Below, one piece after another: positions 400 through 57,047 of a DNA stretch of 64,000 nt. The notes beneath the pieces were generated by a model, which was given only the letters and a program-made list of their open reading frames with translations, was not told the DNA's origin and searched no databases. Both the position numbers and the translations under genes were made by a program. This DNA comes from Elusimicrobiota bacterium (GTDB lineage: Bacteria > Elusimicrobiota > Elusimicrobia > Elusimicrobiales > UBA9959): positions 13,408 through 77,407 of the forward strand of contig JAAYVG010000026.1 of assembly GCA_012517285.1 (NCBI GenBank). The letters are read 5' to 3'. The stretch's first letter is position 1. Every line of letters starts with the position of its first letter.

Positions 400-1638
400 A
401 TGAAGAAGAATGTAAATCCATGGTATTTTGTGCCAAGCACTTATTTTGCAGAGGGTCTCCCTTATGTCGTCGTTAATACGCTTATTGTGGTGTTATATAA
501 AAAATTAAATATTCCAAATGATGTCATCGCTTTTTTAACAAGCTGGTTGTTTTTGCCTTGGACAATAAAATTTTTGTGGGGGCCGGTGGTTGATATAGTT
601 GGAACTAAAAGAAAGTGGATAATATACACTGAGCTTGCTATGGCGGCACTTGCAATTTTAGCATCAATATCCTTAGGAACAAAATATTTTCTGGTAGCCT
701 CTTTGACCTGTTTTATGATTATGGCTTTTCTTTCTGCTACTCAGGATATTGCAGTGGATGGTTTTTATATGATCTCTATGGATGATAAAAAACAAGCCTT
801 TTTTGTTGGCATAAGATCTTTTTTCTATCGTTTAGCAATGCTATTTTCTTCAAGCGTTCTTATCATATATGCAGGAAGGTTAGAAAGTGTCACAAATAAT
901 ATAGTCCTTTCATGGCAGACAATCATAGTTATTGTCGCTCTGATTATGGGTGTTCTCTTTCTATACCATACATTTGTCCTTCCATTTCCTGATGCTGATT
1001 CATCAAACAAGAAGTTTAACTGGCATGAGTTCTGGGATGCAATAATAAGCTTTTTTAAGCAGGATAAGATATGGCTTGCAATAGCATTTATTTTGCTTTA
1101 TAGATTTGGTGAGGCTGTGCTCTTAAAAATAACACCACTTTTTATGCTTGATTCTGTTGCTAATGGCGGACTTGGGCTTCCAACAGCTGATTATGGAAAG
1201 ATATATGGAACGGTTGGCCTTATCTTTTTAATATTAGGAAATATACTTGGTGGTTTTGCAATAGCGAAGTGGGGACTTAAAAAATGTATATGGCCTATGG
1301 CTCTTCTTTTGAATGTTCCTGATCTCGTTTATGTTTATATGGCATATCATACAAATTTGAGCATAGGCTATGTTTATGTCCTTGTTTCACTGGAACAGTT
1401 CGGTTATGGCGTAGGAACCACAGCATTTATGTACTATCTTATACAGATATGTGGTGAAAAGTATAAGACAACTCATTTTGCAGTTGCTACAAGCATTATG
1501 AATGTTGGTCTGATGATACCTGGTATGTTTAGTGGAAAGCTTCAGATGGCAGTAGGATATCCAAAGTTTTTTATAATAGCATGTTTCTTAACAGTACCTG
1601 GAATGATCCTAATACCATTCCTTAAATACAAAGAATAA
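400..1638 (+). CDS. ampG: MFS permease, AmpG-like (muropeptide transporter family)
   Basis: AAGGAG lies upstream of the ATG. About 12 hydrophobic helices. The N-terminal FAEGLPY...KFLWGPVVD resembles the AmpG family signature. Confidence 0.6.
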   Translation: MKKNVNPWYFVPSTYFAEGLPYVVVNTLIVVLYKKLNIPNDVIAFLTSWLFLPWTIKFLWGPVVDIVGTKRKWIIYTELAMAALAILASISLGTKYFLVASLTCFMIMAFLSATQDIAVDGFYMISMDDKKQAFFVGIRSFFYRLAMLFSSSVLIIYAGRLESVTNNIVLSWQTIIVIVALIMGVLFLYHTFVLPFPDADSSNKKFNWHEFWDAIISFFKQDKIWLAIAFILLYRFGEAVLLKITPLFMLDSVANGGLGLPTADYGKIYGTVGLIFLILGNILGGFAIAKWGLKKCIWPMALLLNVPDLVYVYMAYHTNLSIGYVYVLVSLEQFGYGVGTTAFMYYLIQICGEKYKTTHFAVATSIMNVGLMIPGMFSGKLQMAVGYPKFFIIACFLTVPGMILIPFLKYKE

Positions 1639-2654
1639 TGAATGGTTTTTTTTTGCCTTTATTGTCAGCGTTTTTCTTTTCTATTTCTATACCTTTTTCC
1701 AAAGAACTTTTAAATTATTTTTCACCTGTTTTGTTGAGCTCACTGCTTTACTTTTCATCTGCAATATTTCTGATATTTTTTAAGATTATTTACAAATCAG
1801 ATGAGACAAAAATAAAAAAAGATGATTTGATTTATCTGATAGGTATAATTGTGTTTGGTGGTTTTCTTGCACCACTCTGTTTTATAACATCGCTTAAAAA
1901 ACTTCCAGCATCCACTGTATCACTCTTATCAAATTTTGAACTTATATTTACTGTTCTTATATCTATATTTTTTTTGGGTGAAAAGAAAGATAAGAGATTT
2001 TTTACAGGTTTTTTAATTGTTGTTATTGGTCTGTTCTTTGTGACTGATATTTCATCTGTTGATTTTAATAAATCTGTATTATTGATTCTTGCAGCAACAT
2101 TGTTTTGGGCCATAGATAACAATCTTTCCGGCAAACTTTCAGTAAAGGATCCTTACATAATATCAATAATAAAAGGCATTGTTGGTGGGGGAATAAATCT
2201 TCTGATCGCCTTTAATGTGGAGACTATTAATTATTCTGTAAATAAACTTTTTTATGTTTTTTTGTTGGGTGGAGTAAGCTATGGAGGTAGTCTTGTATGT
2301 CTCATATATTCATTCAGATTTGTAGGCGTGTCAGTTAGCATAAGTGTCTTTAATTCATATCCTTTCATTGCATTCGTATTATCAGTTTTATTCTTAAATG
2401 AAAGTGTTTCAATGGGTGTAATAATTGGTGCTCTGCTTTTTGCTACAGGATTGTTGGTGATAATGACTGCATCGCATTCTCATTTACATTCACATATAGT
2501 GGAACATGAGCATTTTCATTCGCACAACGATGGTCACCACAACCATAAACATAATGAGATTGAGTACACAAAAAAGCACTCACATATTCATAAGCATAAT
2601 ATAATACTTCATTCTCATACACACCTTGATGATAGTCATCACAGACATCATTAA
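1638..2654 (+). CDS. DMT/EamA-family transporter with C-terminal histidine-rich tail
   Basis: The ATG overlaps the ampG stop (TAATG). There are two EamA-like halves of hydrophobic helices. The last ~60 aa contain more than 20 His (HSHLHSHIVEHEHFHSHNDGHHNHKH...HSHTHLDDSHHRHH). Confidence 0.6.
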   Translation: MNGFFLPLLSAFFFSISIPFSKELLNYFSPVLLSSLLYFSSAIFLIFFKIIYKSDETKIKKDDLIYLIGIIVFGGFLAPLCFITSLKKLPASTVSLLSNFELIFTVLISIFFLGEKKDKRFFTGFLIVVIGLFFVTDISSVDFNKSVLLILAATLFWAIDNNLSGKLSVKDPYIISIIKGIVGGGINLLIAFNVETINYSVNKLFYVFLLGGVSYGGSLVCLIYSFRFVGVSVSISVFNSYPFIAFVLSVLFLNESVSMGVIIGALLFATGLLVIMTASHSHLHSHIVEHEHFHSHNDGHHNHKHNEIEYTKKHSHIHKHNIILHSHTHLDDSHHRHH

Positions 2655-2669
2655 AAGTATTTTAATTAA

Positions 2670-2721
2670 TTTGGTTATTTGTGTCAGGATGTAAACGGAC
2701 TAATTAGTTATTTAGTTATAT
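2670..2721. repeat. Intergenic module block (CAGGATGTAAACGGACTAATTAGTTATTTAG type)
   Basis: Shares AACGGACTAATTAGTTATTTAG with 52951-52975 and CAGGATGTAAACGGA with 43123-43137. Confidence 0.8.
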
Positions 2722-2831
2722 AGTTTTCCTTCATTTTGACACGATCGTATGGAATTTGAGAAGAGTTAGGTAAAAACAAGCATTGTGGACTATTAAATCC
2801 AAGACGATATCCACAATAATTACGAAAGAAC
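2722..2831 (+). repeat. 110-bp repeat unit, copy A (left arm of inverted pair flanking the transporter operon)
   Basis: Identical at 107/110 positions to the reverse complement of 5491-5600. Contains the ACGATCGT palindrome and the ATTGTGGA..TCCACAAT hairpin. Confidence 0.9.
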
Positions 2832-2854
2832 CATAATTATTGAAAAAATCAATT

Positions 2855-2863
2855 TGCTATAAT
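2855..2863 (+). promoter_or_regulatory. Extended -10 (TGcTATAAT) 8 nt upstream of ATG 2872
   Basis: Read directly from the sequence. No SD lies between it and the ATG, implying a leaderless or near-leaderless transcript. Confidence 0.45.
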
Positions 2864-2871
2864 CTAATTAT

Positions 2872-4530
2872 ATGGAAGCTTTTTTTAACATGATTTTTCA
2901 AAACAACATTCTCTCCACCCTTTTAGCCTTATCGCTTACAGGGCTTATAGGGCTTTATATAGGTAATATAAAAATATTTAATATTGAGATAGGTATAACT
3001 GGCGTTCTCTTTGCCGGAATAATACTATCCTACTTGTCATTGCCATTTGATGAAAATCTTATAATTTTTATAAGAGAGTTTGGGCTTGCACTGTTCGTTT
3101 ATGCTGTTGGTATGCAGGTCGGAAACGGTTTTTTTTCATCATTTAAAAAGAATGGAATTTTTTTAAATCTTTTTTCGCTTGTTATAATCCTTTTAAATCT
3201 CTTGGTTCTTTTTGCAATAAAATATTTTACAAATATAGATATAGCTACACTGATAGGTATGTACTGTGGAGGTGTGACAAACACTCCAGCGTTGGCAACG
3301 GCTCAGACAGCACTTTCGTCTGTCTCAGCATCCGCCCCTGTGGATAAAATATCAATAGGTTATGCACTTACATATCCTGGCGCTGTGCTTTCCATAGTTA
3401 TGTCAATGATAATTATAAAATATATCTTCAGAAAGGAGTGTGAGGATGATATAAAACAGAGCGTTTCAATAAATCAGAAGCCAGAGATATTAAATGTTTC
3501 AATGGTGGTGGAGAATAAAAATCTTGATGGGGTTATGATAAAGGATATCCCTGCAATAGATGAGCTAAATGTCGTTATATCAAGGATAAAAAAGAAGGAT
3601 GGAAGCATAATGATTGCAGGACCTTCAACTGTAATAAATGTTGGTGATATTGTTCTCGGCGTAGGTGAAGAAAAAAATCTTGAGGAGCTTAGAAAAATAA
3701 TAGGCAGCAGGTCTGATTATGATTTTAAAAAACAGAATTCAAAGATAATAAATACAAGGGCAATAGTAACAAACAAAAAGATTATAGGGAAAAAGATTTT
3801 TGAAACAGTAATTCCATCATATAATGTAATTATAACAAGGGCTTCAAGGGCTGATGTGGAATTTGTTGTAACTGATGATTATACCATACAGTTTGCTGAT
3901 AATATTGTTATAGTTGGTGAGGAAGCAGATGTTTTAAAGGTGGCTAAATATATTGGTAACTCTCCAAAAGAACTTACCATACCGAACCTTATACCAATTT
4001 TTATAGGTTTAATAGTTGGTGTTATAATAGCGGTCATACCATTTCGTATTCCATTTGTTTCAACCCCTTTAAAATTGGGCCTTGCTGGGGGACTCCTTAT
4101 AAGTGCTATAATATTTGCAAACTTAGGAAGCATAGGAAAGATTTCGTGGTATATTCCTCCATCGAGCAATCTTATGCTAAGGGAGCTTGGAATAGTTATG
4201 TTTTTAAGTGCTGTTGGTCTCAAATCAGGTCATAACTTCTTTTCAACACTATTGAACAAGGAAGGTATTATGATAGTTGGTGGTGGAATTCTAATTTCTT
4301 TTGTTCCGCTTATAATCACAGGCTATGTTCTTAAAAGATTTTATAAGCTTCATTACCTTACGATATGTGGGCTTCTGAGCGGTTCTATGACAGACCCACC
4401 TGCCCTTGCTTTTGCTAACTCTATTTCAGAATCAAGTCTTCAATCCATATCATATGCTACGGTTTATCCTCTTACAATGTTTATGAGAATAATCTCGGCG
4501 CAGATACTTGTCTTATGGCTAATTCCATAG
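2872..4530 (+). CDS. YidE/YbjL/AspT-family transporter (Asp-Al_Ex repeats with two central TrkA-C/RCK_C domains)
   Basis: N- and C-terminal hydrophobic repeats flank two soluble RCK_C-like segments (VVENKNLDGVMIKDI...VLGVGEE and NKKIIGKKIFE...VIVGEEADV). The N-terminus is similar in layout to E. coli YidE. An alternative start exists at 2890. Confidence 0.75.
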   Translation: MEAFFNMIFQNNILSTLLALSLTGLIGLYIGNIKIFNIEIGITGVLFAGIILSYLSLPFDENLIIFIREFGLALFVYAVGMQVGNGFFSSFKKNGIFLNLFSLVIILLNLLVLFAIKYFTNIDIATLIGMYCGGVTNTPALATAQTALSSVSASAPVDKISIGYALTYPGAVLSIVMSMIIIKYIFRKECEDDIKQSVSINQKPEILNVSMVVENKNLDGVMIKDIPAIDELNVVISRIKKKDGSIMIAGPSTVINVGDIVLGVGEEKNLEELRKIIGSRSDYDFKKQNSKIINTRAIVTNKKIIGKKIFETVIPSYNVIITRASRADVEFVVTDDYTIQFADNIVIVGEEADVLKVAKYIGNSPKELTIPNLIPIFIGLIVGVIIAVIPFRIPFVSTPLKLGLAGGLLISAIIFANLGSIGKISWYIPPSSNLMLRELGIVMFLSAVGLKSGHNFFSTLLNKEGIMIVGGGILISFVPLIITGYVLKRFYKLHYLTICGLLSGSMTDPPALAFANSISESSLQSISYATVYPLTMFMRIISAQILVLWLIP

Positions 4531-5429
4531 TATCAATAATATTAATAATATTTATTGGTTATGTCTTTGCTTTTTTAGATAGGAACAGAAAAAACACAGA
4601 AAACGCATTAAACAAATATCTTTATTATTTAGCACTTCCATTAACTATATTTGTAAGCACTTATTCACTTGATACAAAGTTTATAACATTGAATTTTGTT
4701 CTTATAAACTCTATACCATTGCTGCTGATTTTTTTTGTTGTTTATTTATTATGCTGTATTAAAGTTTTAAAACTGGATTTCGCAAGGACACTTATAATAA
4801 CCTCAACGCTTGGGAATCTTGTCTATTTAGGCTTTGTCATGGTCTCTCTAACAGCAGGTTCTTCCAATCTTGGAACTGCCGCATTCGTCTCAGCAATTCA
4901 AAATATTGTTGTTTTTACTTTTGGCATATTTTTTTTAAATCTTCTATCATATGAAAACAATATTAAAAAAACAATCATCTCTAAAACTTTAGAAAATCCT
5001 CTGATAATATCATCAGTTTTGGGAATCTTTTTTGCCTGTTTTCATATTCAGCTTCCAGATTTTATCAGCAATATTTTTAAGGAGTTTTCAAAATCAACAT
5101 CGGTCGTCGCTCTTTTTATAATTGGTATGGGGCTTTATGGGAAGAAAATTAATATTATAAATATAAAAAAGATCCTTGTTATCTCATTTTTTAAAATGAT
5201 AATCCTACCATTCATTGTTTTGTGCTGGATCTATATTTCTAAAGATTTGAGTGTATCAAGCTATGTAACATTCATACAGTACACAATGCCGCCAGCTGCA
5301 GCCTGTTATGTTCTTGCATATAAGTTGAATCTTGAAGCTGATGTCATTGCTGAATGCATAGTTTTTGACACGCTTCTTTATTTTGCTCTTTTCCCAGCAT
5401 ATTTATATCTTGCAGCTCTCATTTTTTAA
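4515..5429 (+). CDS. AEC (auxin efflux carrier / membrane transport) family permease
   Basis: About 10 hydrophobic helices with an AEC-like N-terminus (IILIIFIGYVFAF). Overlaps the upstream transporter gene by 16 nt, suggesting translational coupling. Confidence 0.6.
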   Translation: MANSIVSIILIIFIGYVFAFLDRNRKNTENALNKYLYYLALPLTIFVSTYSLDTKFITLNFVLINSIPLLLIFFVVYLLCCIKVLKLDFARTLIITSTLGNLVYLGFVMVSLTAGSSNLGTAAFVSAIQNIVVFTFGIFFLNLLSYENNIKKTIISKTLENPLIISSVLGIFFACFHIQLPDFISNIFKEFSKSTSVVALFIIGMGLYGKKINIINIKKILVISFFKMIILPFIVLCWIYISKDLSVSSYVTFIQYTMPPAAACYVLAYKLNLEADVIAECIVFDTLLYFALFPAYLYLAALIF

Positions 5430-5490
5430 AATTATCATAAAAACGGTTAAACATCATAAAAAATTTTATCCTTATTTAGGAATAAAAAAA

Positions 5491-5600
5491 GTTCTTTCGT
5501 AATTATTGTGGATATAGTCTTGGATTTAATAGTCCACAATGCTTGTTTTTACTTAACTCTTCTCAAATTCCATACGATCGTGTCAGAATGAAGGAAAACT
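5491..5600 (-). repeat. 110-bp repeat unit, copy B (right arm)
   Basis: Reverse complement of copy A with 3 substitutions. Confidence 0.9.
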
Positions 5601-5788
5601 TAATCATCAATATCTAAAAGATTTAATCATTGTTTAAATAAATAAACATATATGCATTTAAATATTTACCCAAATTTTTCATTTGTAATCAATCTGTGTT
5701 GTTAAATTGAATAATAAAATCATTAAACGATCTGATTGTGAAAAAAAGTAGCAGATAACTGTTTTTGTTCTTGTTATTTTTGCTTCAG

Positions 5789-5831
5789 TCTTCTCAAATT
5801 CCATACGATCGTGTCAGAATGAAGGAAAACT
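5789..5831 (-). repeat. Truncated copy C of the 110-bp unit (outer 43 nt only)
   Basis: 43/43 identical to 5558-5600 and in the same orientation as copy B, 188 bp further on. Confidence 0.9.
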
Positions 5832-5949
5832 ATTTTAAATTTTATATAAATTTTTTATGTATAAAGTTTTAGGTGTCACTGAAGAACTGCAGGTTAATAT
5901 TAAGATTGAGGTTAAGAAGAAAACGACAAATCCCCATCGAAATAGTGAT

Positions 5950-5996
5950 CAGAAATCAGAAGTCAGAGGACAGAATACAGAAGTCAGAAAGCAGAG
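5950..5996 (+). repeat. Degenerate heptamer array CAGAARN
   Basis: cagaaat cagaagt cagagga cagaata cagaagt cagaaag cagag. Confidence 0.85.
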
Positions 5997-6110
5997 CCTG
6001 CCTACCCGCCCACTGCAATGTGTTAAGAAGTTGTAAACCAGCATTAATTTAACACATATAATCCGTCATAATTCCTACCTGCCTGCCGAAGCCGCTTCGG
6101 CGCAGGCAGG
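5997..6110 (+). repeat. Long-form ~110-bp element ending in the GC-rich palindrome (copy X1)
   Basis: Aligns with 54965-55076 (CTGCAATNTGTTAAGNAGTTGTAAACCAGCATTAATTTAACACATNTAATCCG...). The 33-nt palindrome is at 6078-6110. Confidence 0.85.
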
Positions 6111-6112
6111 TT

Positions 6113-6315
6113 GTATTGGATAATTCTTGTATTATCCATTTTCATCTTGATTACATCTGTATTCATCCTGATGAATCCGTTTCTATCCTGATGATTCTTC
6201 TTCCTAAATAACTATCTTCTTGATTTATCCGTCTTCATCTCGATGAATCTGTTTTCATCCCGATTACATCTGTCTTCATCCTGATGATTACATCATGATG
6301 ATTTCATGCGGATGA
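6113..6315. repeat. Array of TCATCNNGATGA-type mini-palindromes (~20-bp period)
   Basis: tcatcttgatta, tcatcctgatga, ctatcctgatga, tcatctcgatga, tcatcccgatta, tcatcctgatga and acatcatgatga, separated by ATCYGTYTT spacers. The array runs up to the stop codon of the O-methyltransferase gene. Confidence 0.85.
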
Positions 6316-11016: not shown

Positions 11017-11160
11017 CCCCTAAATAAATAACGAGATGACCAAATAACCAATTTATCTGTTTTCATCAGTGTATTTAATCCGTCTCCATCCTGATGATTA
11101 CATCTTGATGAATCTGTCTTCATCTCGATGATTAAACAACCAGATAACTAAATAACTAAT
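11017..11160. repeat. Intergenic module block (CTAAATAA heptamers + TCATCNNGATGA units)
   Basis: cccctaaataaataacgagatgaccaaataaccaatt ... ccatcctgatgattacatcttgatgaatctgtcttcatctcgatgatt ... aaacaaccagataactaaataactaatt. No GC palindrome in this copy. Confidence 0.85.
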
Positions 11161-34762: not shown

Positions 34763-36199
34763 ATGAGAAAAGGTTTTATTTTGCCAATGTTTGTAAGCAT
34801 AATGGTTATTTTTTTTATAATAGTGCCTGTTATATTAAACTGGGTTAGCGAGGATACAAAGAGTACCGTGAGTGAACAGAAGAAATCTATTGCTTTTAAC
34901 TTAGCAGAGGCTGCTGTTGAAAGGGGATACTGGAAGGTTAAAAGTTCAACCTCTACATTTGAAAGTGTTATTATGGGTGGAACTCTGGTCGGTTATAACT
35001 TTGATACTGTCTATAACGATATTCAGGGTGGAAGCTACAGAATTAAGATATCATCAGGACCACTCTCAAGGCAGGTAACAATAATAGGTGAAGGAAGGGA
35101 TAACTCAACTAAAGAGAAAAGGGCAGTTAAGGTGATTTATCAAAATCAAACAATCACTGGTGCTATGATAAGCGGTTCAAAAATAACGCCAAGTGATAAA
35201 ACAACTTTTCACTGGGGACCAATACTTGGCTGGGGTGAGATAAATCTAAGTGGTGGTGCAGGAAATGTTTATTATCCGAGAAAGTTTTCAAAGCAACTAG
35301 TAAGACCGAGGGATAACAGCTTAAATCCTCCAAATACAGATAATCTGGAGTGGTGGTCTGCCTATGATGTTCCTGAACTTCCTCAGTTTGATTTTGCGAC
35401 TATTCGCTCATCTGCTATGGCAAATGGTACTCTTAACTGTGGTGGATTCAACAATTATATATATCCAAATAGTTCAAATGGATACACGCTTAGCTGTAAC
35501 TGTAGTGGTGACAAAAAAAAATGCTGTGCCGATAGAGATAAGTGTAAGATTAAGAATATATATGCCGATAGAAGATATAACAAGGGGCTTTTGTGGTATT
35601 GGGATCCTGGAAAATCAGTTTATATTGATAACAGCGGGACGAAGGGCTCTTTTTTTGTAAGGGGTGATCTTACGATTAGTGGTGATGACTGCTATGGACC
35701 ATGGTATAAAACAAATGGTTATGACCCTTATGGAGGATATCATACCTGTGCTGGAGGACCTTCTTCTGATACTGGACCTGGTGCGTTGTTTGTAGATGTC
35801 CCAAAGACTGCATACTTGGAGTATCAAAAGATAGATACATCCTTATCAAATCAATATGCTGCCGATTTGGATTTGAGTTCATCAGCTGCGGTATATCAGA
35901 TTGGAGCATGTAATAAATCACATTATTATGACTGTGGTAGTAGCTGCGAAGAAGGTTGTGAAAGAGGGGCAAGTGGTGATGATATTGGGCTTGATGGCTT
36001 TTTATATGTAGGTGGTGTTCTTAAAATAACATCTGCCTTTGATATGTATGGTGCGGTATGGGTTGTTGGAAAGGTTGAAACCACAGGAAGTAATAATGTT
36101 TCTGTATTTTTTAATGAAAACTTAGATCTTCCAACTCTTAATGTAGTGCTTATAAGAAAAAGTTGGGAAGAGATACAACCATCATCTTCAATATGGTAG
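34763..36199 (+). CDS. PilX-N-like pilus-associated protein, Cys-rich
   Basis: AAGGAGG RBS. N-terminal hydrophobic helix (MRKGFILPMFVSIMVIFFII) followed by AFNLAEAAVERGYWKV, which resembles PilX_N. Many Cys in the C-terminal half. Confidence 0.45.
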   Translation: MRKGFILPMFVSIMVIFFIIVPVILNWVSEDTKSTVSEQKKSIAFNLAEAAVERGYWKVKSSTSTFESVIMGGTLVGYNFDTVYNDIQGGSYRIKISSGPLSRQVTIIGEGRDNSTKEKRAVKVIYQNQTITGAMISGSKITPSDKTTFHWGPILGWGEINLSGGAGNVYYPRKFSKQLVRPRDNSLNPPNTDNLEWWSAYDVPELPQFDFATIRSSAMANGTLNCGGFNNYIYPNSSNGYTLSCNCSGDKKKCCADRDKCKIKNIYADRRYNKGLLWYWDPGKSVYIDNSGTKGSFFVRGDLTISGDDCYGPWYKTNGYDPYGGYHTCAGGPSSDTGPGALFVDVPKTAYLEYQKIDTSLSNQYAADLDLSSSAAVYQIGACNKSHYYDCGSSCEEGCERGASGDDIGLDGFLYVGGVLKITSAFDMYGAVWVVGKVETTGSNNVSVFFNENLDLPTLNVVLIRKSWEEIQPSSSIW

Positions 36200-36280
36200 T
36201 TGGAGCACTTGAAAAGTTATCTAGTTGTTTAGTTATCTGGTTGTTTAATGGAAACAGAAGTTAGAACTTGCCTGCCGAAA

Positions 36281-36402
36281 CCTAAATAACTAAACAACCA
36301 GATAACGAGATGACTAAATAACCAATTAGTCCGTTTTCTGTCCCTGCCTGCGCCGAAGCGGCTTCGGCAGGCAGGATCTGACTTCTGACATCTGTCTTCA
36401 TC
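36281..36402 (-). repeat. Composite intergenic element, copy E1 (heptamers / 33-nt GC palindrome / heptamers / mini-palindrome)
   Basis: Its reverse complement aligns with 52885-52998, with 2 substitutions over about the first 100 nt and one heptamer-unit indel. The palindrome is at 36343-36375. Confidence 0.9.
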
Positions 36403-36418
36403 TTGTTGATGTATTTTA

Positions 36419-36424
36419 TATAAT
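36419..36424 (+). promoter_or_regulatory. -10 hexamer TATAAT carried on the repeat end, 10 nt before ATG 36435
   Basis: Part of the shared sequence GATGTATTTTATATAATATACTT. Confidence 0.4.
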
Positions 36425-36434
36425 ATACTTGTGA

Positions 36435-38438
36435 ATGAGAAAAATTTTATTTTTTATAATTCTTTTTTTGCCAACAAAAATTATGTCAGATGATTTTAAT
36501 CCCAGATCTGTAAATTATTTTATAAGCGATGCAAATGCTTTAAATATTATTAAGATAAAAAATCTTAAGAAATCAAGTCTTCCTGATATGATATTTGAGA
36601 CTATAAATCCTAAGAAGGATGCAGAAGTAGAGTTTAATATAAAAGTTCCTTTTTATTTTGATGAGATGATACTTTCGCCATCACCGCTTATATATGACGG
36701 TGATATTATAAAATCAGATGTGATTATAGATGATGATGAGTTCTCTTTTGGAAATTTTTCAATAGGAAAATCTAACAGCATAATAAAGAAAGATTCCCTT
36801 GGTGAGATGGATGTTGACACACTAAGGCTTAATAAAAAGATAAAAGAATTTACTGTTAAAATAAAGATTTTTAACAAATCTGGTAAAAAAACTGGGATAA
36901 AACTTATAAATATTGTGATTACAAACCGTGATAAAAATTTTAGCAACCCTATTCTGCCCGGGATGAGTGATACTGTGATTCTTAGTGTACCTAAGATTTC
37001 ACAGCTGGAGCAGCAGGTAAACTATGCTGGTGATATATGCAGTCCGACATCTCTTTCAATGCTTTTAAACTATTACGGTATTGATGTGTCAACAGTATCC
37101 TGTGCTTCCGATGTAATAGACACATCAAAAAATATCTATGGCAATTGGATCTTTAACACATCCTATGCATCAACTAAAAACTTATATTCATTCATTGTGC
37201 GAATAAACTCATATGATGAGCTTAAAAGATATTTACAAAAGGGAATTCCTGTGATAGCAAGCATAACATTCGGGCCAGATGAACTTAAAAATTCACCCAT
37301 TAAAAAGACAACAGGACATCTCCTTGTGATAAAAGGAATTGATAAAAATGGAAATATAATAACAAATGATCCCGCAGCACTCAACAGTAGCAGGGTTGAG
37401 GTGGTGTATGATAAAAAAGAGTTTGCAAATGCATGGTTTAAAAACAAATATGGAACATCATATATATTGGTTGACGATATATTTAAGCTAATATCCTCAG
37501 CCGTTCCTTATTCAGAGATTAAAAAGGATGACGATGTTCTTACACAGATAACACCTGATGAAGAAATAAGACTTGTTGAAAGAACAGCGGATTCTATTCT
37601 GGTCGAAGCCGTTGAACAGAAGATTGAAGGAAAGGATGGCAAGCCTGAGGGTTATAAAGGTTATATTGATAGATACGGATTTTCGTTACCGAAGAGCTAT
37701 AATGCATTTGTCTCTGAGAAGCTTGCAAAAATATATGATGATAAAAGGATTGAGATTGATAAAACTATTTCAGCAGGAACAAGAATTGATATACTGGATG
37801 ATTATGATAATTTTTTTCTTGCAATGGTTGATAATATGATGTTCTTTATCTCTAAAAAAGATGTTATTACTGATTCTGATCTTCATGACATAAAAGATAC
37901 AGGAAAGGCTGTGATAGAAAAGGCAAGGGATTTCATTGGAACGGTATATTACTGGGGTGGAAGAACATCAGATAAGTTGGATTGTTCAGGGCTTACAAGT
38001 TTAATACATAAAATATATGGATACACAATACCGCGTGATGCAAACGATCAGTTCATATATTCAAAGAAAATAAAAACTTTTAATGAGCTCAAACTGGGGG
38101 ATCTGATATTTTCAACAAAGGAGAACTCTGATTTTGTTGACCATGTGATGCTTTATTCTGGTGATGGCAATATCATTGAGGCGACAAAGGAATGTAATTG
38201 TGTTAGAGAGATACCATTTTTACAGAAGTTTGAAATTGATTTAAAAAATGTAATATATGGCAAAAAAATAAATGGTAAAAAGATATATTTTGGAAGATTC
38301 ATAGATGACAATACACTAAAAGATGATAAGAAATCTGATAAAAAAAATCTTAATAAAAATACAAAAACAAAAATAAAAAAGAGCATTCCAAACAAAACAT
38401 ACAAAAAAACTTCTAAAAAAAACAGGAGTAAAAAATGA
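36435..38438 (+). CDS. Secreted dual-peptidase cell-wall hydrolase: C39-like domain + SH3-like repeats + NlpC/P60 domain, Lys-rich tail
   Basis: VPKISQLEQQVNYAGDICSPTSLSMLLNYYG resembles the peptidase_C39_2 family. C-terminal NlpC/P60 motifs YYWGGRTSDKLDCSGLT...HVMLYSGDGNIIEAT. The last ~60 aa are very Lys-rich. Confidence 0.7.
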   Translation: MRKILFFIILFLPTKIMSDDFNPRSVNYFISDANALNIIKIKNLKKSSLPDMIFETINPKKDAEVEFNIKVPFYFDEMILSPSPLIYDGDIIKSDVIIDDDEFSFGNFSIGKSNSIIKKDSLGEMDVDTLRLNKKIKEFTVKIKIFNKSGKKTGIKLINIVITNRDKNFSNPILPGMSDTVILSVPKISQLEQQVNYAGDICSPTSLSMLLNYYGIDVSTVSCASDVIDTSKNIYGNWIFNTSYASTKNLYSFIVRINSYDELKRYLQKGIPVIASITFGPDELKNSPIKKTTGHLLVIKGIDKNGNIITNDPAALNSSRVEVVYDKKEFANAWFKNKYGTSYILVDDIFKLISSAVPYSEIKKDDDVLTQITPDEEIRLVERTADSILVEAVEQKIEGKDGKPEGYKGYIDRYGFSLPKSYNAFVSEKLAKIYDDKRIEIDKTISAGTRIDILDDYDNFFLAMVDNMMFFISKKDVITDSDLHDIKDTGKAVIEKARDFIGTVYYWGGRTSDKLDCSGLTSLIHKIYGYTIPRDANDQFIYSKKIKTFNELKLGDLIFSTKENSDFVDHVMLYSGDGNIIEATKECNCVREIPFLQKFEIDLKNVIYGKKINGKKIYFGRFIDDNTLKDDKKSDKKNLNKNTKTKIKKSIPNKTYKKTSKKNRSKK

Positions 38439-50154: not shown

Positions 50155-50225
50155 ATCTGACTTCTGTCCATGCCTGCGCCGAAGCGGCTTCGCCATGCTG
50201 GCTCTGTCTTCTGACTTCTGTTTCA
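50155..50225. repeat. Degenerate GC-palindrome copy flanked by CTGACTTCTG heptamers
   Basis: ctgacttctgtcc-atgcctgcgccgaagcggcttcgccatgctgg-ctctgtcttctgacttctg. The outer stem is decayed relative to the other copies. Confidence 0.75.
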
Positions 50226-52884: not shown

Positions 52885-52998
52885 GATGAAGACAGATGTC
52901 AGAAGTCAGATCCTGCCTGCCGAAGCCGCTTCGGCGCAGGCAGGGACAGAAAACGGACTAATTAGTTATTTAGTCATCTCGTTATTTGGTTATTTAGG
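52885..52998 (+). repeat. Composite intergenic element, copy E2
   Basis: gatgaagacagatgtcagaagtcagat + palindrome 52912-52944 + gacagaaaacggactaattagttatttagtcatctcgttatttggttatttagg. Near-identical to the reverse complement of E1. Confidence 0.9.
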
Positions 52999-54964: not shown

Positions 54965-55175
54965 GCCTGCCCCCTGCAATCTGTTAAGGAGTTGTAAACC
55001 AGCATTAATTTAACACATGTAATCCGCCATAGTTCCTGCCTGCCAGCCTGCGCCGAAGCGGCTTCGGCAGGCAAGGTCAGAAGACAGAAGACGAAGGACA
55101 GAAAGCAGGAGACAGATAACTAAATAACTAATTTGTCTGTCTTTATCTTGATGATGTATTTTATATAATATACTT
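54965..55175 (+). repeat. Long-form element copy X2 + CAGAAG heptamers + CTAAATAA heptamers + promoter-bearing end
   Basis: The whole 212-bp lptC-like/rfaE1 spacer consists of repeat modules. The palindrome is at 55035-55076. The end GATGTATTTTATATAATATACTT is shared with 36408-36430. Confidence 0.85.
55164..55169 (+). promoter_or_regulatory. -10 hexamer TATAAT carried on the repeat end, 6 nt before ATG 55176
   Basis: Same repeat-borne sequence as at 36419. No SD. Confidence 0.45.
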
Positions 55176-56974: not shown

Positions 56975-57047
56975 TTCTGACTTCTGATTTCTGTCCCTGC
57001 CTGCGCCGAAGCGGCTTCGGCAGGCAAGTTCTGTTTTCTGTCTTATC
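56975..57047. repeat. GC palindrome copy with flanking TTCTG heptamers between kdsB and pyrG
   Basis: ttctgacttctgatttctgtcc + palindrome 56996-57028 + ttctgttttctgtcttatcc. It ends at the GGAGG RBS of pyrG. Confidence 0.85.

Follow-up and report, generated by a model that had tools for sequence, protein, structure and literature searches.

The BOX elements of Streptococcus pneumoniae and Streptococcus suis are assembled from modules in the order boxA-boxB(n)-boxC, and terminal inverted repeats (TIRs), target duplications and a well-paired predicted RNA have been reported for them (PMC3049150). Mosaic REP clusters, which include the BIMEs of Escherichia coli, the Neisseria intergenic mosaic elements (NIMEs) and REPIN/RAYT systems (PMC3184786, PMC2817692, PMC3116915), are intergenic mosaics of short modules that often lie between convergent genes. 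Here, we analyze a 64,000-nt stretch of DNA from an Elusimicrobiota bacterium (GCA_012517285.1, contig JAAYVG010000026.1, positions 13,408 to 77,407 of the forward strand; hereafter the window), in which a pair of 110-nt inverted repeats, the arms, brackets an operon of two transporter genes of the AspT/YidE and AEC types. The outer part of each arm is a core sequence that recurs at other intergenic loci of the same species.

In its organization, the repeat family of the arms comes closest to the pneumococcal BOX elements and to BIME/NIME-type mosaics. Similar to BOX, it is non-coding, intergenic and modular, contains a tandem internal unit that varies between strains, and is clustered with other repeat families. 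However, TIRs, target-site duplications (TSDs) and a paired RNA were not found here, there is no sequence similarity to BOX, and the tandem unit of 231 bp is far larger than boxB. The mosaic REP clusters share with it the intergenic mosaic layout, the association with recombination and the role of target for insertion sequences (IS), and the species studied here has a RAYT with its own REP hairpins, a hairpin type that adjoins the core at several loci. Unlike these systems, the core as a whole is no palindrome and does not fold, its copies number in the tens and not in the hundreds, and its sequence differs from that of the REPs that flank the RAYT. Because hairpin, TIR and TSD are all lacking, we therefore assign the family to the broad kind of mosaic intergenic repeats and to no named family.

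We consider it probable that the arms belong to a lineage-specific family of mosaic intergenic repeats that was locally duplicated, in inverted orientation, around a resident operon, and that they act as recombination substrates and as a landing pad for an IS, with no dedicated function shown. The arms themselves are neither genes nor structured RNAs nor the ends of a transposon. The family of their core is young or homogenized and is scattered between the genes of an uncultured Elusimicrobiales species, in many cases as tandem units of 231 bp.

Composite arms and a dispersed core

In accordance with the initial annotation, which was made from the sequence alone, the two arms (2722-2831, reverse-complemented, and 5491-5600) agree at 107 of 110 positions, with mismatches at unit positions 26, 63 and 96 only, and enclose 2659 bp (2832-5490). 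A 40-nt probe from the outer arm hits exactly three sites in the 64 kb, compared with no match in 100 shuffled sequences. At the third site, the outer 43 nt (5789-5831) are identical to the right arm and begin 188 bp past its end, as had been noted, but this copy is not limited to them: it extends over 58 nt (5774-5831) with 93% identity to 5543-5600. The open reading frame (ORF) coordinates and Pfam matches also agree with the description of the enclosed segment as an AspT/YidE gene and an AEC gene overlapping by 16 nt; a putative extended -10 promoter lies inside the same segment.

The locus was compared with contigs that encode an identical AspT protein, with the hits of a metagenome scan for the core and with the results of further look-ups, which together provided 7-8 independent assemblies of the locus and, in addition, a syntenic 140-kb contig of the same species. 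The comparison contigs or strains are labeled L001-L037. The identical AspT protein, which NCBI assigns to uncultured Elusimicrobiales metagenome-assembled genomes (MAGs), is found on at least 10 contigs from different samples. Alignment of all copies with their flanks showed that the 110-nt unit is a composite of an inner 52 nt, module X, and an outer 58 nt, core C. The modules run X-C-T-C-P on the right side of the locus and, in reverse, F-C-X on the left, with the following features:

2684..2721, minus strand: module F, the 38-nt outer flank of the left arm; the same 38 nt lie 3' of the core at the 'far' copy in other strains
2722..2779, minus strand: core C, outer 58 nt of the left arm; 96.6% identical to 5543-5600, family HMM E = 4e-20
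2741..2748, no strand: ACGATCGT palindrome of the left arm, an IS target; IS present here in sample 3300050336, with the octamer duplicated
2780..2831, minus strand: module X, inner 52 nt of the left arm, with the ATTGTGGA...TCCACAAT stem; 98% identical to 5491-5542
2855..2863, plus strand: putative extended -10 promoter TGCTATAAT of the AspT-AEC operon, read from the sequence and kept in L032
2872..4530, plus strand: AspT/YidE-type transporter gene (PF06826, 1.5e-77, plus TrkA_C)
4515..5429, plus strand: AEC-family transporter gene (PF03547, 3.9e-23)
5491..5542, plus strand: module X of the right arm, from the copy alignments
5543..5600, plus strand: core C of the right arm (ACGATCGT at 5574-5581), from alignments, probe and family HMM
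5601..5773, plus strand: module T, a 173-nt spacer; C+T is the 231-bp tandem unit, with tandem copies on other contigs
5774..5831, plus strand: third core C (ACGATCGT at 5805-5812), from alignment, probe and HMM
5832..5952, plus strand: module P, AT-rich with ATGTATAAAGT...; copies 95-98% identical lie 3' of C elsewhere

The two halves of the arm differ in their distribution. In the 370 kb compared, module X is confined to this locus, where both arms carry it and one strain has a third, 'far' copy, and the full 110-nt X+C unit is likewise present at this locus only. The minimal core is the 45-nt sequence ASTCTTCTCAAATTYCATACGATCGTGTCARAATGAAGGAAAACT, centered on ACGATCGT. Metagenome Ga0302250, from the same species, contains at least 18 near-identical copies with its exact pattern at 11 intergenic loci; they lie on seven contigs, and one of these contigs shares synteny with the window. 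This outer module is thus a multi-copy, non-autonomous and non-coding repeat family, as the initial annotation had proposed; no parent IS with matching ends was found in the partial genome data searched.

Each core is joined to other modules. On its 3' side is one of four: T, P, P' or F. Module T leads into another C, giving tandem arrays with a period of 231-232 bp and 1-3 units per locus; C+T occurs two to three times in L010, L014 and L017, and TRF reports a period of 232, 2.3 copies and 96% matches for L010. Module P, which ends in ...ATGTATAAAGT..., follows C in L001, L003, L009, L010, L017 and L027, and P' carries a AAAAAAAAGACGWWCGTCTTTTTTT hairpin. Module F is repeated at L003 10407-10444, L027 17868-17905 and in L019, and continues into arrays of 20-21-nt repeats; a portion of it is also found in further intergenic repeat clusters within the window. 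On the 5' side there are at least five alternative modules. The partners of the core also include X, a hairpin module and 20-mer arrays, and the left boundary of the core varies among copies. The copies found are near-identical, with no old degenerate ones among them, and the core HMM recovered no diverged copies within the window. One T+C unit lies inside a 20-mer array in a more distant lineage (L012 1220-1450, ERZ795051).

Other repeats populate the same intergenic regions. A GC-rich hairpin repeat, CCTGCCTGCCGAAGCCGCTTCGGCGCAGGCAGG, occurs at 6078-6110, 36343-36375, 50167-50206, 52912-52944, 55043-55081 and 56996-57029; the hairpin at 36.35 kb is missing from that site in L020 and L021. 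Arrays of 20-21-nt tandem repeats (consensus ~ATCTGTTTTCATCCTGATGA) and of 7-nt CAGAAGT-type repeats lie at 6134-6287, 11078-11131, 36390, 43119 and 55135, and also at 5948-5995. They fill many intergenic regions, with a number of units that is not constant among strains. One such unit is similar to the final 18 nt of the core.

Searches of other collections returned no further copies. Queries with a 20-mer of the core and with the EamA protein gave no match in the representative genomes, and the species and its repeat are therefore not in that set as searched. The core was not found in viral contigs, plasmids or phages, and exact look-up of the window EamA and O-methyltransferase gave no record.

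A dispersed family of this kind could be an active miniature element, in which the core or the whole X+C unit is mobilized in trans by a RAYT/IS200-like or other transposase and the arms are independent or paired insertions. The many near-identical copies, the absence of degenerate ones and the presence/absence polymorphism between strains and lineages all fit such an element. Small size, lack of coding capacity, multiple near-identical copies and polymorphism of filled and empty sites are features shared with MITEs (Correia/NEMIS, RUP, ERIC, Nezha). A RAYT-like gene is present in one strain (L001 1364-2140, MAG GCA_018000795.1), ~5 kb upstream of the window start, although not at the same site in L025. 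It scores 70.8 bits against NF047646, just under the cut-off, and is flanked by AAGTAACCGAAGCGGTTACTT hairpins, not by the core; a related hairpin module directly adjoins the core at four loci (L008, L009, L014, L023). However, no direct repeat flanks any X+C or core copy, in line with the earlier remark that a clear TSD was lacking. The weakly inverted, MITE-like ends suggested for the unit proved weaker than described, since GGTTCTTTCGTAAT and AGTTTTCCTTCATT match in inverted orientation at only ~7/13 positions at the DNA level. In the partial genome data searched, the ends of none of three IS types (ISL3/IS256-like, IS1634, RAYT region) resemble the core; with neither a TSD, convincing TIRs nor a parent IS found, the MITE label is unsupported. 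Furthermore, the core forms no hairpin, its left boundary shifts from copy to copy, and X is limited to this locus. We therefore regard mobilization as a miniature element as unlikely.

The arms also contain the ACGATCGT palindrome and the ATTGTGGA...TCCACAAT stem that the initial annotation had read as internal structure. Both are present, but the unit folds no better than shuffled sequences (z -0.2 to -1.5). The same is true when the 110-mer, the 45-mer and C+P are folded on both strands (z -1.5 to +1.1); as DNA, the 45-mer reaches -1.0 to -1.3 kcal/mol (z ~ +1) and has no hairpin. A riboswitch, small RNA or attenuator encoded by the unit, which had been offered as the fallback, would draw on the position of the left arm just upstream of the AspT promoter and on the 8-10-bp stem in module X. 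That arm lies upstream of the promoter and not in the leader, however, and the other copy lies downstream of the operon, in antisense orientation. Rfam gave nothing relevant for the unit at the gathering score or at E <= 10. In an RNAalifold analysis of eight C+T units, including one divergent unit with T ~80% identical, the covariation terms were close to zero on both strands (-0.07 and -0.9), with a single compensatory pair, and the divergent copies broke the predicted pairs. A structured RNA is scarcely credible on this evidence. No conserved ORF runs across C, T or P, which contain only short, non-conserved ORFs; the ORF of module P has no conserved C-terminus.

Recombination and insertion at the arms

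A sister lineage (L032; ~90% nucleotide identity, AspT protein 94%) lacks the left arm. Its EamA and AspT genes are separated by a spacer of 82 nt that holds the same TTGAAAAAA...TGCTATAAT promoter and neither X nor C, and homology resumes exactly at the inner arm end, window 2833. The left arm is therefore an insertion relative to this lineage. In the synteny comparison that the initial annotation had proposed, the orthologous locus of more distant relatives also had no such repeats, and both results support its reading. For the right arm, an empty site was sought through a sister-lineage AEC homologue, and none closer than 54% was found. A second polymorphic site lies at window 36199-36435, which has no core. 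In L016, L020 and L021, the same site carries the core and P' with two terminator-like hairpins, and in L023 a hairpin module, the core and an IS. On either side of the filled site, a common module is present as an imperfect 28-nt duplication, which points to recombination and not to classical transposition.

Comparison among strains showed that the arms recombine with each other and with other copies, through gene conversion between arms, exchange of their outer modules and changes in the number of 231-bp units. In all strains the cassette has X facing inward and C facing outward. The right arm is nearly fixed, whereas the left arm carries a mosaic of single-nucleotide polymorphisms (26C/63C/96A in the window, 26C only in L001, 47T/63C in L027), and this combination indicates gene conversion. 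On the left, the strains differ in whether F, P' or an expanded 20-mer block (m-F) forms the outer module. On the right side, the C+T unit is missing from L003, L005 and L027, and L001 has a mirrored 364-bp repeat, with P'-C-T-C-X on the left and X-C-T-C-P on the right. The 20-mer block m, found beside the window O-methyltransferase gene and beside the L025 EamA gene, was considered as proof of an inversion and rejected, being made of common modules that simply expand and contract.

The arms also mark the edges of strain-variable DNA. An island absent from the window (~5953-6247) lies between the right arm and the O-methyltransferase gene in L003 (2890-10296, 7.4 kb) and, in a shorter form, in L027 (12729-17822). 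It encodes two small ORFs, a radical SAM enzyme and an ABC exporter in a layout like that of a peptide-maturation cluster. Both islands contain an ORF with an rve fragment, and that of L003 alone encodes an IS1634-family transposase. The L003 island is bounded by direct X-C copies and ends in a third X-C copy.

Finally, the ACGATCGT center of the core is a preferred landing site of an IS. In sample 3300050336, the left arm is interrupted by an IS whose inverted ends are imperfect and which is flanked on both sides by the duplicated 8-bp ACGATCGT (L025 11286-11427, L005 1-110), the two contigs reading ...GAC ACGATCGT GGGATAAAGACAG... and ...CGCCCTTATCCC ACGATCGT ATGG.... The same ends (GGGATAA[AG]G[AG]C...GGTTGGT) abut ACGATCGT at four more sites, for a total of five independent ones: the third core copy is interrupted at the octamer in L004 (7921) and L006 (6298), and the others are L011 139, L023 ~5660 and a remnant in a P'-type hairpin at L014 3693. 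The transposase fragment has a weak match to the ISL3 and IS256 (Zn-variant) models. In the window, ACGATCGT occurs at 2741, 5574 and 5805, always within a core, where 0.6 occurrences are expected.

From these observations, we propose that the X+C composite was added beside a long-resident AspT-AEC operon, that the left copy arrived after the split from the sister lineage, and that a local inverted duplication may have put one copy on each side. New copies would spread mainly by recombination through shared neighboring modules, or else through a trans-acting enzyme, and the inverted pair would make the cassette a possible substrate for inversion.

History of the enclosed operon

The initial annotation had raised the possibility of cargo captured between two copies of a non-autonomous element, that is, a composite transposon that brought the transporter pair to this site. 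The outward ends of the arms are indeed identical (AGTTTTCCTTCATT...) and bracket two genes with their own promoter. However, AspT-AEC is found beside MFS in six relatives with 57-68% AspT identity, beside MFS-EamA in five of them and beside MFS alone in the sixth; AEC is paired with AspT in every relative examined, and the top-ranking AspT homologues (50-68% identity) come without exception from Elusimicrobiota. The operon is therefore resident DNA, and we reject the captured-cargo reading. Furthermore, the GC content of the cassette is similar to that of its flanks, the sister lineage has EamA beside AspT without the left arm, no TSD surrounds the unit, the arms encode nothing, and the identical operon was never seen in another context on the at least 10 contigs that carry it. 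A composite transposon is accordingly largely refuted and, in our judgment, highly improbable.

The second possibility raised was a segment that inverts by recombination between the arms, whether as a population switch or as an evolutionary rearrangement. As in invertons and shufflons, inverted repeats bracket a defined segment; these are long, 97-99% identical and kept alike by gene conversion. The MFS/EamA/AspT/AEC neighborhood seen in L029, L031, L033-35, L036 and L037 (the last without EamA) also has a history of rearrangement. The order is AspT>AEC>MFS>EamA in L033-36, the same without EamA in L037, EamA<MFS<|AspT>AEC in L029 and L031, and MFS>EamA>AspT>AEC in the window (400-5429). The four genes thus remain adjacent across Elusimicrobiota in three arrangements, which are related by inversion in place, or by an exchange of positions, of the two-gene units. 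Apart from this, L031 and L037 keep a collinear order over ~13 kb (POR, ABC, ABC ... MFS, CDF, ferredoxin, MalK), which implies at least one in-place flip of AspT-AEC within the order. Around the flipped pair, the ABC, MFS, CDF and POR genes are otherwise collinear between L031 and L029 on one side and L036, L037 and L033-35 on the other.

This historical inversion left no repeats at its junctions, however. Within the species, all 7-8 assemblies with a readable flank have the cassette in one orientation (0 inverted). Unlike typical recombinase sites, the arms are very long, and no invertase is nearby: in agreement with the initial annotation, Pfam found no transposase or recombinase domain in the 56 ORFs of at least 90 aa in the window, and the IS proteins of other strains gave no tblastn match to it. 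The assemblies of L007, L028 and L003 break exactly inside the arms, but contigs can be expected to end in any repeat that exceeds the assembler's k-mer. As the segment contains the promoter along with both genes, its inversion would have no obvious effect on expression and no obvious regulatory output. Therefore, we think it very unlikely that the arms form an invertible cassette of this kind.

Two further features adjoin the operon. The hairpin of module X in the right arm, followed by GCTTGTTTTT, may be a weak terminator for the operon, as predicted from its sequence. The upstream EamA/DMT transporter gene (1638-2654) encodes a ~60-residue His-rich C-terminal tail (window ~2460-2651; HSHSHLHSH...HHNHKHNE...HSHTHLDDSHHRHH), which is kept in the sister lineage, and in relatives this gene lies near a cation-diffusion-facilitator gene.

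Candidate roles for the conserved core

The distant unit in L012 suggests that the core may be more than a passive repeat. Its T module shares 78-81% identity with those of the window species, while its 45-nt core is identical to theirs. This contrast between core and neighbor weighs against the mosaic-repeat reading that we favor, as it suggests a sequence-specific function, for example in protein binding, for which a purely neutral repeat would have no use; the conservation of the 45-mer would fit either a protein recognition site or very recent spread. Two steps of our proposed history weigh on the same side of the balance: the origin of the arms in an inverted duplication is inferred, as is the route by which copies spread, for which the 28-nt duplication fits recombination in one case only.

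One such function would be that of a protein-binding site or portable promoter cassette, an operator or 5' leader comparable to the Neisseria REP2/CREN repeats, which supply a promoter, ribosome-binding site and ATG (PMC3184786), perhaps bound by a protein with a PaaX/Cas2 domain. Besides the perfect conservation of the 45-mer across lineages, this is suggested by the palindromic center of the core and by C+P, which, as in REP2/CREN, has an AT-rich -10-like box and an ATG with 4-5 codons. Module P carries TATATAAAT and ATGTATAAAGT, and in L014 this ATG is the genuine start of one gene (3866-4399, minus strand), which encodes a 177-aa PaaX-central (PaaX_M)/Cas2-like protein and begins 26 nt after a three-copy core array; the first 4-5 codons (ATGTATAAAGTC) are common to the P module elsewhere. 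A remnant ATGAACAAAAAA start is kept on the other side of many copies. The core faces the 5' end of a gene at ~3/11 loci (L009, L014, L017), and it faces the radical-SAM cluster in L003.

In contrast, at ~7/11 loci, both arms included, the core is directed into the 3' end of a convergently oriented gene, and unlike REP2/CREN, most copies precede no gene, leaving a regulatory role only a candidate. The genes beside the core loci are unrelated (pullulanase, polyprenyl synthase, TatD, glycosyltransferases and others), and the distance from core to start codon ranges from 26 to >450 nt. The promoter scan called no sigma-70-like promoter in the core, and the sister lineage keeps the AspT promoter without the arm. 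We consider a portable promoter or operator quite unlikely. The core was also inspected, with the promoter scan, as an ECF, sigma-54 or sigma-70 promoter, attC, dif, parS or uptake sequence, and none of these fits.

Alternatively, the 45-nt core could be the DNA site of a lineage-specific recombination or DNA-binding system, with the arm pair actively flipping or relocating the AspT-AEC cassette. This would explain the repeated changes in cassette orientation beside MFS-EamA in Elusimicrobiales, although we hold it to be decidedly unlikely.

Taken as mosaic intergenic repeats, the arms and their relatives represent an undescribed and richly modular repeat set in an uncultured Elusimicrobiales lineage. 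These repeats shape genome structure at the level of strains: they delimit variable DNA such as the radical-SAM/ABC island, vary in unit number, exchange sequence and draw an IS to one octamer. They also call for caution in annotation, as long inverted repeats around an operon do not necessarily signify captured cargo or a switch. If the core is a protein recognition site, it would open a way to study genome rearrangement in a phylum where genetics is almost entirely lacking.

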